From the IMG/VR virus record IMGVR_UViG_3300045988_113120, positions 24,222 to 88,221 of that record: a stretch of DNA of 64,000 nucleotides; one strand, written 5' to 3'. The position numbers were made by a program, and so were the translations under genes. Every line of letters starts with the position of its first letter. Position 1 is the stretch's first letter. Shown piece by piece: positions 24,155-37,272 of the stretch. The DNA comes from a virus. The notes beneath the pieces were generated by a model. The model was not told where the DNA came from, did not search any database, and saw nothing but the letters and a program-made list of their open reading frames with translations.

Positions 24155-24256
24155 GTTTTGTACCTATGTAAAACTAAATAGGTATCAAACAGGCTTCTCA
24201 CTGCGAAATATTGATGATGAGTTTTGTACCTATGTAAAACTAAATAGGTATCAAAC
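24155..24256. CRISPR. Mini-array II: 2 identical 36-bp repeats flanking one 30-bp spacer
   Basis: Repeats at 24155..24190 and 24221..24256: gttttgtacctatgtaaaactaaataggtatcaaac, with the internal palindrome tacctat/ataggta. Spacer at 24191..24220: aggcttctcactgcgaaatattgatgatga. Degenerate repeat-like sequence flanks both sides. Confidence 0.5.
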
Positions 24257-31255: not shown

Positions 31256-32716
31256 TTAGAACTCACGGTAATCTGCTGGCTCTGGTGTTCCAAGATTTTC
31301 ATTATCTGTAGATTCTACTTCTTTATCTTCAGAAACAAAATCTTTTAGCATCTTTGCAAGATCAACACCTGTAGATCCTTTAACACCATCTGATACCTGA
31401 TTCACAACATTCATAATATCTTTTGTTAATTTTGTTGTGTTTCCTTCTCCATACATAGTGATACTTCCTACATTTCCTAATGGTGCGGCTGCATTTTTAA
31501 CTGCTTCTGGGAACATCTGGCACATCATTTCTACAATAGAAGCTTTACCCATCTGTTTCATAGCTTCTGCTTTCTTTTCGATTGCTTCTGCTTCAGCAAT
31601 ACCTTTAGCTTTGATTGCCTCGGCTTCTGCTACACCCTTTGCACGAATACCTTCAGCTTCCTGTTCCATAGCATATTTTGTAGATTCAGCTTCTTTTTCT
31701 TTAGCATATTTATTAGCTTCTGACTCTTTCTGTCTCTTATATAAATCTGCATCTGCTTTCTGCTGAGAGGCATATCTTTCAGCCTCTGCCTGTTTCTTGA
31801 TCTGTGCATCTAATGTCTGCTCTGTTACCTCAACGTCTTTACGTTTCAGTTCAATTTCTTTTTCCTGACGCATAATATTAGCATCCGCAGTTACAATTTC
31901 AATTTCTTTACGTGATTTTTCTTCCTGAATCTTGTATGCTGCATCTGCCTCAGCCTTCTTTGCTTTTGAAATCTTCTCAAGTTCAGATTTTTTAATTTCC
32001 AGATTGTTATTCTTTTCTGCGATCGCTGTTTCTGACTCAACCCTTGCATCATTCGCTTCTTTTTCAGCCATTGCTTTTGCTTTTTCAATATCTCTTTCGC
32101 TTTCAGCTCTGGAAATTGCAGCCTTCTTCTGAATTTTAACAACATTATCTACACCAAGATTTTCAATAACATCATTATCATCCATAAAATTCTGCACATT
32201 AAAACTGATGATATCTAATCCCATTGCAGCAAGGTCTGGCTTCGCATTTTCTGTAACAAGCTGTGCAAATTTCTGACGATCAGAAACCATTTCTTCGAGG
32301 CTCATCTTTCCAACGATCTCTCGCATATTACCTTCAAGGACTTCTCTTGCGACCTGTCCAATATCGCCTACTGGCTTATTTAAGAAGTTTTCTGCTGCAA
32401 GTTTTAATCTTTCTGGATTACTGCTAACCTTTACATTGACCGCTGCATCTACATTGATATTGATATAATCTGCTGTAGGCACAGAACTTGATGTCTTAAC
32501 ATCAATTGGAATTAACTCAAGATTAAGATGATCTGCTTTTTCAAAGAATGGGATTTTTAACCCTGCCTTACCAATTAATGTCTTAGGTGTCTTTCTAAGT
32601 CCAGAAATAATATAAGCTTTATCTGGACTTGCTTTGACATAACCGCTACCGATAATAGCTCCTACGCCACCTACCGCAATAACCACTGGTACCACTGTTC
32701 CAATTACTTCAATCAT
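31256..32716 (-). CDS. Flotillin-like SPFH/band-7 domain protein
   Basis: 486 aa. It has an N-terminal hydrophobic anchor, an SPFH domain, and a long Ala/Glu-rich coiled-coil (AEAEAIKAKGIAEAEAIEKKAEA) typical of flotillins. Confidence 0.65.
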   Translation of the reverse strand: MIEVIGTVVPVVIAVGGVGAIIGSGYVKASPDKAYIISGLRKTPKTLIGKAGLKIPFFEKADHLNLELIPIDVKTSSSVPTADYININVDAAVNVKVSSNPERLKLAAENFLNKPVGDIGQVAREVLEGNMREIVGKMSLEEMVSDRQKFAQLVTENAKPDLAAMGLDIISFNVQNFMDDNDVIENLGVDNVVKIQKKAAISRAESERDIEKAKAMAEKEANDARVESETAIAEKNNNLEIKKSELEKISKAKKAEADAAYKIQEEKSRKEIEIVTADANIMRQEKEIELKRKDVEVTEQTLDAQIKKQAEAERYASQQKADADLYKRQKESEANKYAKEKEAESTKYAMEQEAEGIRAKGVAEAEAIKAKGIAEAEAIEKKAEAMKQMGKASIVEMMCQMFPEAVKNAAAPLGNVGSITMYGEGNTTKLTKDIMNVVNQVSDGVKGSTGVDLAKMLKDFVSEDKEVESTDNENLGTPEPADYREF

Positions 32717-32781: not shown

Positions 32782-33114
32782 CTAAATACATCCGCCACAA
32801 GAATTAGTGCGAAAATCCTCTTCATTGATTGCTTTGAAGATCTGGCGCTGAACATCAATATCTTTTGTAATTTTATCTAACCAATACTTATTAGCCTCAA
32901 TCCACTCATCTTGTTTCAGTCCGTCATAATATGATTCCCATTCTTCAACCCAGTCCTTAAAATACCATCGCTCATATCTTTTATATGTATTCATAGGTTC
33001 TGTGCGTAAGTCTTCTGGAATCTTATCGGTAACATCTTTGCCATCAACATCAAGCTTCCATTCTCCAATACAGAGTGCAAAACCACGACCTGTCCATTTT
33101 GCTTTAACTTCCAT
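32782..33114 (-). CDS. Hypothetical protein
   Basis: 110 aa ORF. Confidence 0.4.
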   Translation of the reverse strand: MEVKAKWTGRGFALCIGEWKLDVDGKDVTDKIPEDLRTEPMNTYKRYERWYFKDWVEEWESYYDGLKQDEWIEANKYWLDKITKDIDVQRQIFKAINEEDFRTNSCGGCI

Positions 33115-33116
33115 AT

Positions 33117-33887
33117 TTAATCATCCAACTCCATTCCTGCCTCGATCCACATGCCAGATATAAATTTAGGCATTGGAGCAAGTTTAAATACATTCTTCTC
33201 ATGCATCTCGTCAATGATCTGTCTCACTGCTTCATCTTTACATACTCCAGTTCTCAGATATTCGTCTAACATATCATATGTAAATCCAAGATTATCTTCA
33301 TCTGTCTTACCGCATAATCCATCAGTAGGTGTTTTTTCGATTAACTCTGTTGGAAGTCCCAGAACTCTACCAATTGCTTTAACTTCTGTCACAGTCAGAT
33401 CACTTAATGGACTAAAATCTCCGGCTGAATCTCCATATCTTGTTGCATATCCGACCCAATCTTCAGATAAATTACATGTATTTGCTACTCTTCCATTCAT
33501 ACTCTGTGCAAAAGCATACAATGTAGCCATTCGGATACGAGCAGGTAAATTTGTGGCACTCTGTTTACTCCATTTACCGCCTAATTCATCTCTGATTTCA
33601 TGTTTAATATCTCTGCAAGCATTAAAAATATTAACTGTGTAATGTTCAATTCCTAGATGATCACATAGCATCTGAGAATACTCAATATCACTCTGCACAC
33701 CCTGTGGCATCATAATTCCAATAACTCGATCTTTACCTAGTGCTTCGACACATAAGGCAGCGACAACTGATGAATCTTTACCGCCTGAAATTCCTACAAC
33801 GGCATTACACCATCTTCCATTAACTTTAAACCAATCTCTAATCCACTGTACTAATCTGTCTTTGGTTTCTGCTGCATTAAAACTCAT
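33117..33887 (-). CDS. nadE: NH3-dependent NAD+ synthetase
   Basis: 256 aa. PP-loop motif VGISGGKDSSVVAAL. NadE-like length. Confidence 0.75.
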   Translation of the reverse strand: MSFNAAETKDRLVQWIRDWFKVNGRWCNAVVGISGGKDSSVVAALCVEALGKDRVIGIMMPQGVQSDIEYSQMLCDHLGIEHYTVNIFNACRDIKHEIRDELGGKWSKQSATNLPARIRMATLYAFAQSMNGRVANTCNLSEDWVGYATRYGDSAGDFSPLSDLTVTEVKAIGRVLGLPTELIEKTPTDGLCGKTDEDNLGFTYDMLDEYLRTGVCKDEAVRQIIDEMHEKNVFKLAPMPKFISGMWIEAGMELDD

Positions 33888-33904
33888 GTTTTATATCTCC
33901 TCTC

Positions 33905-35374
33905 TTAAAATTCTCCTTCGTTTAAAACTCTTCTAATTTCCTGTAATGACTGTTCTTTTACCAATTTGCCATCTCTAAATACTGTCTCAAGCAGATTATT
34001 CATTGGAAGATTTTCTGAAGTATATCCATCTTTAAATGTCAATTTACCGTCTAATCCTGTATAGACATGACATAAACCTCTCTGAGATTTCTTAAATCCG
34101 CCATCTTTTGGATTCTTGAAAATTGGATATGGTTTGCCATCAATCTCACAATACGTTGCTTTAATACAACTGCTAAATGTATCTCTTGTAAATGGTTTCA
34201 AAACTCCATTTTCTTCAATACACTGGAATGAGAATGATCCGACGCCAAGTGCAACATTGCTTGCTGCGAATCCATTTTTCTCTAAAATGTCATAAATCTG
34301 CTCACATCTCTGCACTGTAATTGAATCTCCGTAAATTGCTTTTACATGAGGATCTAATACTTTATATCCTTTACTATTCGTAGTTCCGCCAAACTCTTCC
34401 CATAACTTGAATACCGTTCTGGTTACTACATCTACACAATCTCCTGAATCCCCTCTTACAAGAAAACATCCATTGTGATTCATAATCTCATTCTTGAGTT
34501 TTGGAAGAATATTCTCTACAACGTTCCAATAATCATATGAATCCAATACTGCGGAGAAGCTTGTGTTTCGATAAATCTCTGTAAGTAATCTTTTAATCAG
34601 AGTCTCTTCATCTCCGTCAATCGCATAATTACTACACGCAACCGAATGTTCCGTTGACGGGCTACCAAAAGCAACTGGTTCTTTCGTACAATCACAGTTA
34701 TAATTTCTCTCTAAATATGGAATTGTTGGAACTGTTGCTGTATTTAAGAATGATAAACACCATCCTGCCCCTGCTTTAACCGCAGACTGTAAACATTCTT
34801 CGCCACGAAAATCGAAAGCCCCTAATGCTTTAGATTTTGGAATATCGTCATCACAAGTCATTTCATAAAACTTATTAACGATCTGTCTATATGTATGCCC
34901 GACAGTTGCAGCGATCATCGGATGCCACATTTCTGCGGAAATTAAGCTTTCTAATGCCTGTGGCAACCATGCAAAATCTTTATGTGTATTCTCAATACTA
35001 AACATCGGCACATGCATTGGTACTAAAGTTCCTTCAGGAAGAGCCTTAATCTCAATTGGAAGATAGCCAAGATCATATAAATCTTCTATTTTCTGTAATC
35101 CATATGTACCTTCTCCAAGAGCTGCATCCATTACTGTCTTATAAGTACCAATTGCTTTGTTTCTATATTCAAAGAAAAAATACTCATTAAAATAATCGAC
35201 CAAATACTCTTTAATGAATCCTTGTAATCCAAACATGGCTACTTCATTCCATCGTTTTACTCTGCTCATACGTGGAGTAAAATAAGAAACAGATTTTGTA
35301 ATACCTTTTGGTAACATTTCAGCATGAACTGCTTTATAAAAATCAATTAATAACATTGGATTTGTCTGTTTCAT
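33905..35374 (-). CDS. Nicotinamide phosphoribosyltransferase-like enzyme (NAMPT/NadV family; could be a Namat-type ADPR-PP transferase)
   Basis: 489 aa. Its N-terminus NPMLLIDFYKAVH and the stretch LPIEIKALPEG closely match NAMPT (NILLATDSYKVTHY; LPIEIKAVPEG). The start overlaps the Prs-like gene by 4 bp. Confidence 0.75.
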   Translation of the reverse strand: MKQTNPMLLIDFYKAVHAEMLPKGITKSVSYFTPRMSRVKRWNEVAMFGLQGFIKEYLVDYFNEYFFFEYRNKAIGTYKTVMDAALGEGTYGLQKIEDLYDLGYLPIEIKALPEGTLVPMHVPMFSIENTHKDFAWLPQALESLISAEMWHPMIAATVGHTYRQIVNKFYEMTCDDDIPKSKALGAFDFRGEECLQSAVKAGAGWCLSFLNTATVPTIPYLERNYNCDCTKEPVAFGSPSTEHSVACSNYAIDGDEETLIKRLLTEIYRNTSFSAVLDSYDYWNVVENILPKLKNEIMNHNGCFLVRGDSGDCVDVVTRTVFKLWEEFGGTTNSKGYKVLDPHVKAIYGDSITVQRCEQIYDILEKNGFAASNVALGVGSFSFQCIEENGVLKPFTRDTFSSCIKATYCEIDGKPYPIFKNPKDGGFKKSQRGLCHVYTGLDGKLTFKDGYTSENLPMNNLLETVFRDGKLVKEQSLQEIRRVLNEGEF

Positions 35375-36207
35375 AAATCTAACACCTCAACTTTCTCATG
35401 TTCTTTCGTAAAAATACTACGTGTTGTAAATACTTTTTTAAACAAACTATCTTCCTTTAGTAATTCGCCATCAAGAATTGTGTTTTCACAGTGAGTAACG
35501 TACAAATACATATCTTTACAACCGTATTTGTTTAATTCTTTTGATCCGTAGTAGAATGTGCCACCCTTACTACAAATATCATCAATCATTAGAATTGCTG
35601 TATTCTCATCTAATTTATCTGTATCTCCATGAATCTCAATACCAAGAATTTCTCCTGTCTTCCAATCACGATTTTTAATTCCATAGACAATCGGATAATC
35701 ATCTGATACAAATTCAGAATATCTTTTTAGTGATCCGCTATCTGGAAAATAAATTACAAGATTTCTTGATGACTCTGCTTTAAGGACTTTGCAGCAAGTT
35801 TGTGTGATATATGATGCTCCACGAATTACTTCTACATGATCAATCAATGCAGTAGATACATCGGAATGTGGATCAGTTACAATAACTCGTACAAATCCCA
35901 GACTATTAATAATTTCTGCAAAATATTTTAATGTAAAGCATTCGCTTGGCTCTTTTACTCTGTCAAATCTTGCATTTGGTATATACGGCATCACTAATGC
36001 TTGTTGTAACCACGGAAAATGTTCTTTAATATTTTTAGAAATACACAACAAAGAAAACAACTCTTGATCTGACTCATATAACCATGTGATATACACTGTC
36101 TTGTTTTCTATGATTTCTTGAGATATCACACCTAACGAAAAATCAATTTTTTGCGTTCCATCTGGAAAAGATTCTGGAACAATTGGGACTCCACCAATAC
36201 TAATCAT
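35371..36207 (-). CDS. Ribose-phosphate pyrophosphokinase (Prs)-like enzyme (candidate ADPR pyrophosphokinase Adps)
   Basis: 278 aa. PYIPNARFDR resembles the Prs motif PYFGYARQDR. A PRTase-type PRPP-binding loop is present (ILMIDDICSKGGT). Confidence 0.65.
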   Translation of the reverse strand: MISIGGVPIVPESFPDGTQKIDFSLGVISQEIIENKTVYITWLYESDQELFSLLCISKNIKEHFPWLQQALVMPYIPNARFDRVKEPSECFTLKYFAEIINSLGFVRVIVTDPHSDVSTALIDHVEVIRGASYITQTCCKVLKAESSRNLVIYFPDSGSLKRYSEFVSDDYPIVYGIKNRDWKTGEILGIEIHGDTDKLDENTAILMIDDICSKGGTFYYGSKELNKYGCKDMYLYVTHCENTILDGELLKEDSLFKKVFTTRSIFTKEHEKVEVLDL

Positions 36208-36221
36208 TTTTCATCACCCCT

Positions 36222-36773
36222 TTATTCATTAATTACTTCAATTTGACACATTTTCATTGCTTCGAGTGCGTTCTTATGACTCTCTGGCGTTACACCAGCA
36301 CAGCAGGAAGCATCTACGATAATCTTTGCTTCTGGTAACGCTGCTTTTAATAACATTGCGTTTGAAATTACACAAATATCTGTACAAAGACCGATTAATG
36401 TAATACTTTTAATTATTTCTTTTTGTTCTTTGTGTAATAAACAATAATCAAAAAACAAGTCGGTAGACCCAAAAGACATTTTATGATAGTCATTCAAACC
36501 ATTATATTCCCATCCATTTGTCTGCAAAGCTTGTTGTACGTCTGGATGGAGCTGCCACCCATTGGTGCCAAGAAGACAATGTTCTACTGGTAATTTTTGA
36601 CCTTCCTGTGTTGATAGATAATCTTCAAAATGAGTATCATATGTTGTAATAAGACGCCCATCGAACGAATTTATCTTCTCAACAACTTTTGGAACGATCT
36701 CCTGTGCTTCTTTGGTTCCAAGGCTTCCGTCGATGAAATCATTCTGCATATCGACGACAATTAATATTTTCAT
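36222..36773 (-). CDS. Isochorismatase-family hydrolase, nicotinamidase (PncA)-like
   Basis: 183 aa. The N-terminus ILIVVDMQNDF matches the cysteine-hydrolase family. A conserved Cys lies in LIGLCTDICV. Confidence 0.65.
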   Translation of the reverse strand: MKILIVVDMQNDFIDGSLGTKEAQEIVPKVVEKINSFDGRLITTYDTHFEDYLSTQEGQKLPVEHCLLGTNGWQLHPDVQQALQTNGWEYNGLNDYHKMSFGSTDLFFDYCLLHKEQKEIIKSITLIGLCTDICVISNAMLLKAALPEAKIIVDASCCAGVTPESHKNALEAMKMCQIEVINE

Positions 36774-36804: not shown

Positions 36805-37272
36805 TTAATCAAATAATCCATACCCAAAGTGCTGTCTCAGTTCATGATTCCAACTATTAATCGATTCAACTTTTCGCTCTTTGACAAGCTTATATCGAAA
36901 ATCTTTAGGCATAGACAATACGATAAAATTCATAATAAGTTTTGCACAGTCTTTCCTTTCTTCGATATAATACACGCCATCTTCTTTATAGAAATCAACC
37001 TCTTTAAAACACCCAGAATTATTTAAAATTTCAAATGCTGTTTCGCTAATTTCTGATTCTTGATACTCTGTCCAAATCAGTCTCTCACTTCTACAACCAA
37101 GACCTAGCCCCGTATAATCTTCATTACAATTAAAACCTACTCCTAGCTTTTTACAGCTGTCTTTATACGCTTGTCGAATTTTATGAATATCATAGTTACA
37201 ATCAAATAAAAAACTTTCTGATATTTTATGCCCATCTTCCGACCAGTCGCCTAATTCTAATTTATAAATCAT
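36805..37272 (-). CDS. Hypothetical protein
   Basis: 155 aa ORF. Confidence 0.4.
   Translation of the reverse strand: MIYKLELGDWSEDGHKISESFLFDCNYDIHKIRQAYKDSCKKLGVGFNCNEDYTGLGLGCRSERLIWTEYQESEISETAFEILNNSGCFKEVDFYKEDGVYYIEERKDCAKLIMNFIVLSMPKDFRYKLVKERKVESINSWNHELRQHFGYGLFD

Follow-up and report, generated by a model that had tools for sequence, protein, structure and literature searches.

A phage-borne four-gene cluster predicted to rebuild NAD+ from ADP-ribose and nicotinamide through deamidated intermediates

Within a 64,000-nucleotide stretch of viral DNA (IMG/VR record IMGVR_UViG_3300045988_113120, positions 24,222 to 88,221; hereafter the window), we analyzed a cluster of four genes that is carried by a gut phage and encodes a PncA-like nicotinamidase, an Adps-like pyrophosphokinase of the Prs family, a Namat-family transferase with an altered base pocket and an NH3-dependent NAD synthetase, NadE (Table 1). 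Based on the sequences, we lean towards a model in which these four genes form a self-contained pathway that would rebuild nicotinamide adenine dinucleotide (NAD+) from ADP-ribose and nicotinamide via deamidated intermediates. In this model, PncA would deamidate nicotinamide to nicotinate and NH3, the Adps-like kinase would convert ADP-ribose and ATP to ADP-ribose pyrophosphate (ADPR-PP) and AMP, the altered Namat would join nicotinate and ADPR-PP to give nicotinic acid adenine dinucleotide (NaAD) and pyrophosphate, and NadE would amidate NaAD to NAD+ using NH3 and ATP, whereby the NH3 released by PncA would be usable by the NH3-dependent NadE. The four genes look like one integrated NaAD pathway because two changes in the transferase, Ala213 and Ser240, track the presence of PncA and NadE. 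The published reaction, in which nicotinamide and ADPR-PP directly give NAD+, is unlikely to be the main one here. The phage copy would most likely restore NAD+ during infection, also following attack by an NAD+-cleaving defence.

Table 1. Genes of the cluster and positions of interest in the transferase gene, in coordinates of the window
Feature	Position	Strand	Length	Remark
PncA-like nicotinamidase	36222..36773	minus	183 aa	proposed step 1 of pathway
Adps-like Prs-family pyrophosphokinase	35371..36207	minus	278 aa	proposed step 2 of pathway
Namat-family transferase, altered base pocket	33905..35374	minus	489 aa	proposed step 3 of pathway
NH3-dependent NadE	33117..33887	minus	256 aa	proposed step 4 of pathway
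Ala213 codon of transferase	34736..34738	minus		context peptide FLNTATVP
Ser240 codon of transferase	34655..34657	minus		context peptide GSPSTEH
Modified adenine-clamp helix motif (SCH) of transferase	34181..34240	minus		GSFSFQC-IEENGVLKPF-TRD

The original prediction had placed four genes of these identities at positions 33117-36773, which is borne out by the open reading frames (ORFs) and profile matches, and the motifs that it quoted (PYIPNARFDR, LPIEIKALPEG and SGGKDS) are all present in the translations. The 4-base-pair (bp) overlap that it reported between the Prs-like and NAMPT-like genes (ATGA) was likewise confirmed; the remaining cluster genes are separated by spacers of 14 and 17 bp. 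The set of four is found together in over 100 IMG/VR contigs (transferase identity 48%-100%) and in about 80 contigs from Clostridia genomes, and its arrangement is not due to chance.

The transferase matches the Pfam families NAPRTase (PF04095) and NAMPT_N (PF18127) as well as the phage family phrog_448 (5.7e-156), and its best PDB match is the Namat of phage SPbetaL1 (9w5x/9w5w, E 9e-113, 380 bits), compared with 172 bits for human NAMPT; by homology it is of the Namat lineage, not of the NAMPT or NARP2 type. Its NCBIfam match is named 'nicotinate phosphoribosyltransferase' (NF006629), which we take to be a legacy label for the NadV/NAMPT family, and the label was left unused as evidence. 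Adps and Namat together constitute the NAD+ reconstitution pathway NARP1 (Osterman et al. 2024, bioRxiv 10.1101/2024.02.11.579819; structures in PMC12774641 and PMC13586617). The match of the middle gene pair to NARP1, which the original prediction had drawn, holds at the level of homology (the bit scores above and the Adps signatures described below), but the Asp that specifies nicotinamide is lost from the transferase (Ala213, together with Ser240).

In the crystal structures of SPbetaL1 Namat, nicotinamide is held by F189, R192, D215, A242 and R306 together with D13' and Y15' of the other protomer; D215 hydrogen-bonds the amide of nicotinamide, and activity of the D215A mutant is down 8.1-fold (PMC12774641). 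In human NAMPT, Asp219 is accepted as the residue that determines specificity for nicotinamide (PMC12143786, PMC9322656; PMC7096376 citing Khan et al. 2006). In our alignment, Ala213 of the window transferase takes the place of both SPbetaL1 Namat D215 and human NAMPT D219, and Ser240 sits at the nicotinamide contact Ala242 of SPbetaL1 Namat, with the ribose and phosphate contacts and the catalytic His243 being kept. A D219S mutant of human NAMPT reportedly also accepts nicotinate.

Across the representatives, the D215 position is occupied by Ala or Ser in all 37 that have PncA and/or NadE at the locus (35 with both), and by Asp or Glu in all 51 others. The A242 position follows the same division without exception, being Ser in 37/37 Ala/Ser-type and Ala in 51/51 Asp/Glu-type representatives. 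Only seven of the 491 alignment columns separate the two types fully (184, 187, 213, 215, 240, 242 and 304, SPbetaL1 numbering); two are direct nicotinamide contacts, three sit two residues off contacts of the nicotinamide site (F189, D215 and A242) and one sits two residues off the ribose contact R306. The ribose and phosphate contacts are invariant across both types. Judged from this comparison, the base pocket of the transferase is remodelled.

To relate the pocket to gene content, we sampled 209 phage loci with flanks of 7 kilobases (kb), 120 of the Ala/Ser type and 89 of the Asp/Glu type, as well as 80 loci from bacterial genomes, and compared the residue found at the D215 position with the occurrence of homologs of PncA, Adps and NadE. 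Among the viral loci with at least 5 kb on each side, the 100 of the Ala/Ser type contained PncA in 99, Adps in 100 and NadE in 99 cases, whereas all 59 of the Asp/Glu type contained Adps and none contained PncA or NadE. The bacterial relatives were of the Ala/Ser type throughout (80/80). The linkage persists down to 48% transferase identity and across gene orders, with PncA upstream or downstream, in the order Adps-PncA-Namat or with inserted genes. From the same habitat, 25 loci of crAss-like gut phages carry Glu at the amide-binding position (motif TSFCGSETIP) in the NARP1 order Namat-x-Adps, and PncA or NadE is nearby in none of them (L110, L112-L127, L130-L132, L144, L150, L151, L156 and L182). 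The original prediction had suggested that PncA and NadE mark an expanded or alternative nicotinate branch; the nicotinate branch finds support here, but the cluster is probably not NARP1 with two add-ons, since the pocket changes track both genes.

In a neighbour-joining tree, the Ala/Ser-type transferases form one clade with 100% bootstrap support (58/60 replicates once bacterial sequences are added), which branches from within the NARP1-type Namats. Phass-1 is placed outside this clade in 72/100 bootstraps, and the KVP40-type sequence (PVA23) is the outgroup to the whole Namat radiation. For the transferase, the phylogeny that had been proposed as a check places the window protein among the NARP1-type Namats. 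Where the transferase of a contig shares at least 97% identity with that of the window (L004-L058, set against window 35371-36773), PncA identity is 98-99% in some contigs and just 64-67% in others, and that of Adps lies between 72% and 99%, indicating allelic mosaicism and recombination within the cluster.

The kinase bears the marks of Adps. Its score against the ribose-phosphate diphosphokinase model TIGR01251 (88.4 bits) is under the 113-bit cut-off, every canonical Prs model of NCBIfam stays below its cut-off with the equivalog models far below, and the protein matches the phage family phrog_619 (4.7e-67). With SPbetaL1 Adps it shares 38% identity, with ICP1 Adps 28% and with E. coli Prs 21%, and tblastn found it at 3e-36 against SPbetaL1 and 2e-31 against FADO, both of which are proven NARP1 phages; a sequence search of a PDB copy that apparently does not include the ICP1 Adps structures returned canonical Prs structures only. 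For the roles of individual Adps residues, we took those described in PMC13586617 and mapped them onto our own alignment. The kinase is devoid of the C-terminal alpha11-alpha12 segment found in E. coli Prs, a loss typical of Adps (PMC13586617). Its PP loop, DDICSKGGTFYY, is similar to that of ICP1 Adps, DDICDGAASFKF, and not that of E. coli Prs, DDMIDTGGTLCK, and its hairpin K178-N-R-D-W-K-TGEI fits the Adps pattern (K185-I-R-D-V-K-TGDI in ICP1); neither the PP loop DDMIDTGGT nor the hairpin DKRRPRANV of the Prs pattern is followed. In addition, R80, H114, D156, D209 and D210 correspond to the conserved R87, H121, D161, D212 and D213 of ICP1. By these signatures, the kinase groups with proven Adps and not with canonical Prs.

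With regard to the ribosyl donor, the adenine clamp of the window transferase keeps the SCL Arg (R38, equivalent to R40) and the equivalent of F392 (F381, position 3 of the motif), but Cys stands at the equivalent of Y396 (position 7), and, compared with the Namat consensus GSX-Phi-X-Phi-X-Phi-TRD, the motif is broken up by a 9-residue insertion. In Namat, the R40A/F392G double mutant suffered the greatest loss of activity, 16.6-fold, whereas single clamp mutations cost 1.3- to 1.7-fold (PMC12774641). Basal members of the clade (Clostridium sartagoforme, C. brassicae and C. aciditolerans) and Phass-1 have an uninterrupted motif (GSYTYQYNTRD or GAYTYQYVTRD) and thereby pair an intact clamp with the D-to-A and A-to-S changes. 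The length of the insertion ranges from 9 to about 40 residues (L102:7001-8572, L070, L046, L261, L266; R. albus IEEDDDITVTTADGQQIKGRATILKPF), suggesting a surface loop at the entrance to the active site where insertions are tolerated.

Genes that accompany the transferase elsewhere speak to the same question. A macro-domain protein (PF01661; phrog_335, 'phosphatase') is encoded within 7 kb in 47 of the 120 Ala/Ser-type phage loci, mostly directly after the transferase, and 20 further loci of this type carry, usually in the same slot, a 136-amino-acid HAD-like protein with a DFDDT motif (phrog_1238). The two genes never co-occur in a locus, and among the 89 Asp/Glu-type NARP1 loci they are found in 20 and 12, respectively. 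A macro-domain ADPR-1''-phosphate phosphatase, Adpp, is known from NARP1 operons as an answer to the aRES defence (bioRxiv 10.64898/2026.01.28.702374). As an Adpp-like enzyme would be useful only if the pathway consumes ADP-ribose, the macro-domain genes favour ADPR-PP as donor; so does NrtR, which adjoins bacterial versions of the operon and has ADP-ribose as its effector (PMC2330246). The HAD-like protein is a candidate alternative ADPR-1''-phosphate phosphatase; it is labelled 'phosphoheptose isomerase' in phrog_1238 and has no Pfam match (e.g. L011:8470-8880, L033:8488-8898 and, in Phass-1, L001:8555-8974). At the window itself, no macro-domain homolog was found anywhere in the 64 kb and no HAD-like accessory gene at the cluster. 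Overall, the Adps signatures, the 4-bp overlap, the intact basal clamp, the macro-domain genes and NrtR suggest that the acceptor of the kinase is likely ADP-ribose instead of ribose-5-phosphate.

The PncA-like protein matches Pfam Isochorismatase (PF00857, 5.9e-21), and its best PDB matches are nicotinamidases/pyrazinamidases (1ilw, 7.8e-12; M. tuberculosis PncA 3pl1, 7.6e-8). In an alignment, it shares the catalytic triad (D8/K98/C134) and the metal site (D46/H48/H65) with E. coli PncA, and its score is under the NCBIfam equivalog cut-off (35.9 compared with 174 bits); from these residues and matches, we assign it as a divergent member of the nicotinamidases. NadE matches NAD_synthase (PF02540, 3.5e-57) as its sole full-length Pfam hit, the remaining ones spanning the PP-loop region only, and exceeds the TIGR00552 cut-off (190.3 compared with 63.65 bits). 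It is 32% identical to E. coli NadE, carries the SGGKDS PP-loop at residues 34-39 and is single-domain, without a glutaminase domain.

The operon is not phage-specific but is chromosomal in gut, rumen and other Clostridia isolates; a genome scan found it in many Lachnospiraceae, Ruminococcus, Oscillospiraceae and Clostridium genomes. In C. sartagoforme the order is Adps-PncA-transferase-NadE-NrtR, flanked by an M60 peptidase, a UvrA-like protein and MatE, and in Pseudoruminococcus massiliensis it is PncA-Adps-transferase-NadE-NrtR with a glutamine-dependent NadE, flanked by AgrB, a Tim44-like protein and an alpha/beta hydrolase. Konateibacter massiliensis has PncA-Adps-transferase-NadE between a LacI regulator and a two-component system, and Ruminococcus albus has PncA-Adps-transferase with no NadE within 7 kb, in chromosomal flanks that include a serine recombinase. 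NrtR thus adjoins the operon in two of these four isolates. A prophage origin of the loci was discarded for all four, the flanks being ordinary chromosomal ones save for the serine recombinase, which lies about 4 kb away from the cluster in R. albus 8. Among Lachnospiraceae and Pseudoruminococcus, many operons encode NadE in its two-domain glutamine-dependent form (CN_hydrolase plus NAD_synthase, 648 amino acids; L228:8491-10437), in contrast to the NH3-dependent form in the phage. In the tree, sequences from phages and from bacteria are intermingled, indicating repeated transfer between the two. The operon is native to Clostridia chromosomes, where it probably recycles ADP-ribose, possibly under NrtR; the NrtR-linked chromosomal copies point to housekeeping recycling of ADP-ribose and niacin as its ancestral role.

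Two other chemistries compete with the formation of NaAD from nicotinate and ADPR-PP. It is improbable, in our estimation, that the cluster boosts a Preiss-Handler route based on phosphoribosyl pyrophosphate (PRPP), in which the kinase would make PRPP, the transferase would replace PncB by joining nicotinate and PRPP to nicotinic acid mononucleotide (NaMN), and host NadD followed by phage NadE would complete the synthesis. The pocket changes favour nicotinate and are silent on the ribosyl donor, the interrupted clamp of the window's subclade lacks the aromatic residue at position 7, and SPbetaL1 Namat can work with PRPP in vitro if there is no ADPR-PP (10.1101/2024.02.11.579819; PMC12774641); on the other hand, the kinase is Adps-like in identity, PP loop, hairpin and the missing Prs C-terminus, SPbetaL1 Adps gave no PRPP (10.1101/2024.02.11.579819), the full clamp is kept in basal members, and macro-domain genes of the ADPR-1''-phosphate phosphatase kind behind the transferase are sensible only for an ADPR-fed pathway. 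With E. coli sequences as the only seeds, no NadD/NadR-type adenylyltransferase was detected in the window, which covers 64 kb out of roughly 160 kb of genome, whereas such an enzyme is present in 94% of NARP2 phages (10.1101/2024.02.11.579819); as NadD is universal in hosts, its absence from the phage proves little. An ordinary NARP1, making NAD+ from nicotinamide and ADPR-PP, with PncA and NadE as an independent side branch that boosts host PncB/NadD salvage, is likewise unlikely. Under this arrangement, PncA would compete with the transferase for nicotinamide. Among the 37 and 51 representatives, the Asp is never kept together with PncA and NadE and never lost without them, the second pocket residue (A242S) shifts in step with its loss, and NARP1 phages of the same habitat, the crAss-like loci with Glu, do without both genes. 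What speaks for it is that the Adps/Namat pair with its 4-bp overlap is the exact NARP1 architecture and that D215A Namat remains partly active, its loss falling short of abolition (PMC12774641).

A further alternative, compatible with any of these chemistries, concerns the role of the phage copy, which could be an auxiliary metabolic module of host origin that boosts the NAD+ supply for replication in general and not a dedicated counter-defence; we consider this possible though doubtful. It would accord with the chromosomal operons outside prophages in the four isolates, two of them beside NrtR, with the interleaving of phage and bacterial sequences and with the window copy being free of either accessory gene. 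However, an ADPR-fed pathway would be idle unless NAD+ is being cleaved (as argued in 10.1101/2024.02.11.579819), phosphatase-type genes (macro-domain or HAD-like) lie near the operon in 67/120 phage loci compared with 4/80 bacterial loci, mirroring the arms-race extension NARP1-AP, and NARP1 homologs protect phages experimentally from SIR2-HerA, Thoeris, DSR1/2 and SEFIR (10.1101/2024.02.11.579819). The enrichment in phage copies and the proven action of NARP1 homologs against defence favour a counter-defence use in phages, which we regard as plausible; it is one such role and not a given, because the same operon is chromosomal in Clostridia, often beside NrtR.

Several points weigh against the NaAD pathway that we favour. 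The sequences show the identities of the genes, their homology, the residue changes, the co-occurrence and the genomic contexts, from which we infer all enzymatic steps, NaAD as an intermediate and a role in counter-defence. Ala or Ser at the Asp position may just relax base specificity and not switch it. The altered clamp of the window's subclade, with its 9-residue insertion and Cys in place of Y396, would make the preference for ADPR-PP over PRPP less secure there than in basal members. The co-occurrence of pocket and gene content represents one, possibly two, evolutionary events and not hundreds, since the Ala/Ser types form one well-supported clade to which Phass-1 may add an independent lineage. 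The R. albus operons, as indicated above, have no NadE within 7 kb, and one phage locus with a 99% identical transferase (L007:8467-15467) has none within 7 kb downstream, the only such full-length phage locus. Finally, the route costs one ATP more than NARP1; it may be preferred because a strong host nicotinamidase activity makes nicotinate the available base in these Clostridia. In a separate observation, L007 also lacks a 110-amino-acid ORF and the SPFH gene described below, its downstream block being seemingly replaced.

Compared with published pathways, which comprise NARP1, NARP1-AP, NARP1 with the RyDEP glycosidase (PMC13232231), NARP2 (Nampt plus Nmnat, Vibrio phage KVP40) and NARP3 (PnuC plus NadR, PMC13464706), the cluster is closest to NARP1. 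The genes for a Prs-family kinase and a NAMPT-family transferase are directly coupled, ADP-ribose is presumed to be the input, the transferase is nearest to SPbetaL1 Namat with the SCL Arg and the F392 equivalent kept, and the kinase has Adps signatures. Unlike in NARP1, the amide-binding Asp is replaced by Ala, Ala242 is replaced by Ser and the clamp motif has an insertion; the pair is nearly always accompanied by PncA and NadE, the predicted transferase product is NaAD and not NAD+ at the expense of an extra ATP, and the cluster is common in bacterial chromosomes and not mainly phage-borne. Akin to NARP1-AP, many phage relatives have the macro-domain gene right after the transferase, although the window is without it and the relatives add PncA and NadE, which are lacking in published NARP1-AP.

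The Preiss-Handler operon of Clostridium acetobutylicum, whose genes are nrtR-pncA-pncB-nadD-nadE (PMC2330246), offers a second comparison. Similar to this operon, the cluster has PncA first and NadE last, would be entered by nicotinamide/nicotinate and would have NaAD as penultimate product, and NrtR adjoins its bacterial versions; in contrast, an Adps-like kinase and a Namat-family transferase replace PncB and NadD (nicotinate to NaMN to NaAD), and the ADP-ribosyl moiety would come from ADP-ribose and not from PRPP plus ATP. NARP2 and the bacterial prs-nadV-nrtR arrangement, in which prs-nadV pairs are also NrtR-linked (PMC2330246), share with the cluster a NAMPT-family enzyme for rebuilding NAD+. 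Their enzymes keep the Asp and use nicotinamide, unlike the cluster transferase with its Ala, and NARP2 needs an adenylyltransferase of the kind not found in the window with the E. coli seeds. NARP3 is irrelevant as a match, PnuC and NadR genes being absent here. Within full-text literature, with subscription-only papers outside its coverage, no description of a PncA/NadE-linked Namat variant was found, and the paper on the Phass-1 genome goes no further than listing a nicotinamidase (PMC10607447).

Taken beyond the window, the model would have Ala/Ser-type Namats form NaAD from nicotinate and ADPR-PP in a fourth NAD+ reconstitution pathway, 'deamidated NARP1', that recycles ADP-ribose in gut and rumen Clostridia beside NrtR and has repeatedly been captured by their large phages against NAD+-cleaving immunity, armed with macro or HAD-like phosphatases; we hold the chances of this broader proposal to be evenly balanced. 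If true, it would entail a new enzymatic reaction, a nicotinate ADP-ribosyl transfer making NaAD, and a new complete route to NAD+ that bypasses both PncB and NadD, and phage NAD+ reconstitution systems could be entire host operons moved between chromosome and virus. Current annotation merges nicotinamide-type and nicotinate-type enzymes, which a two-position sequence rule would then part, with Asp/Glu plus Ala denoting the nicotinamide type and Ala/Ser plus Ser the nicotinate type. The pathway would also bear on the NAD+/niacin economy of abundant gut Lachnospiraceae and Ruminococcaceae.

Regarding the phage itself, a megablast search of the cluster region against GenBank phages gave no match, and the nearest records, human faecal contig MT835544 and Phass-1, were found only at the protein level. 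Sequence of the window recurs in IMG/VR contigs of about 160 kb, indicating a large phage. The neighbours of the cluster have PHROG matches with function unassigned. The small flanking ORFs at 32782-33114 and 36805-37272 were rejected as parts of the module, as they are kept near the cluster only in close relatives and not at 74-78% identity. A scan of 32-38 kb for promoters and terminators returned fewer sites than shuffled sequence and nothing usable, with no terminator-like or above-background promoter-like sites between the four cluster genes, and a scan of the 64-kb window for tRNAs found no tRNA genes. Immediately downstream of the cluster (31256-32716, minus strand) lies a gene for a 486-amino-acid SPFH/Band-7 protein with a flotillin-like segment (PF01145, 7.8e-24; PF15975), which is without a PHROG match and an unusual phage cargo. 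The window is AT-rich (GC 0.30-0.37), and its GC skew is negative over all of positions 1-64000, which suggests that most of its genes are on one strand.

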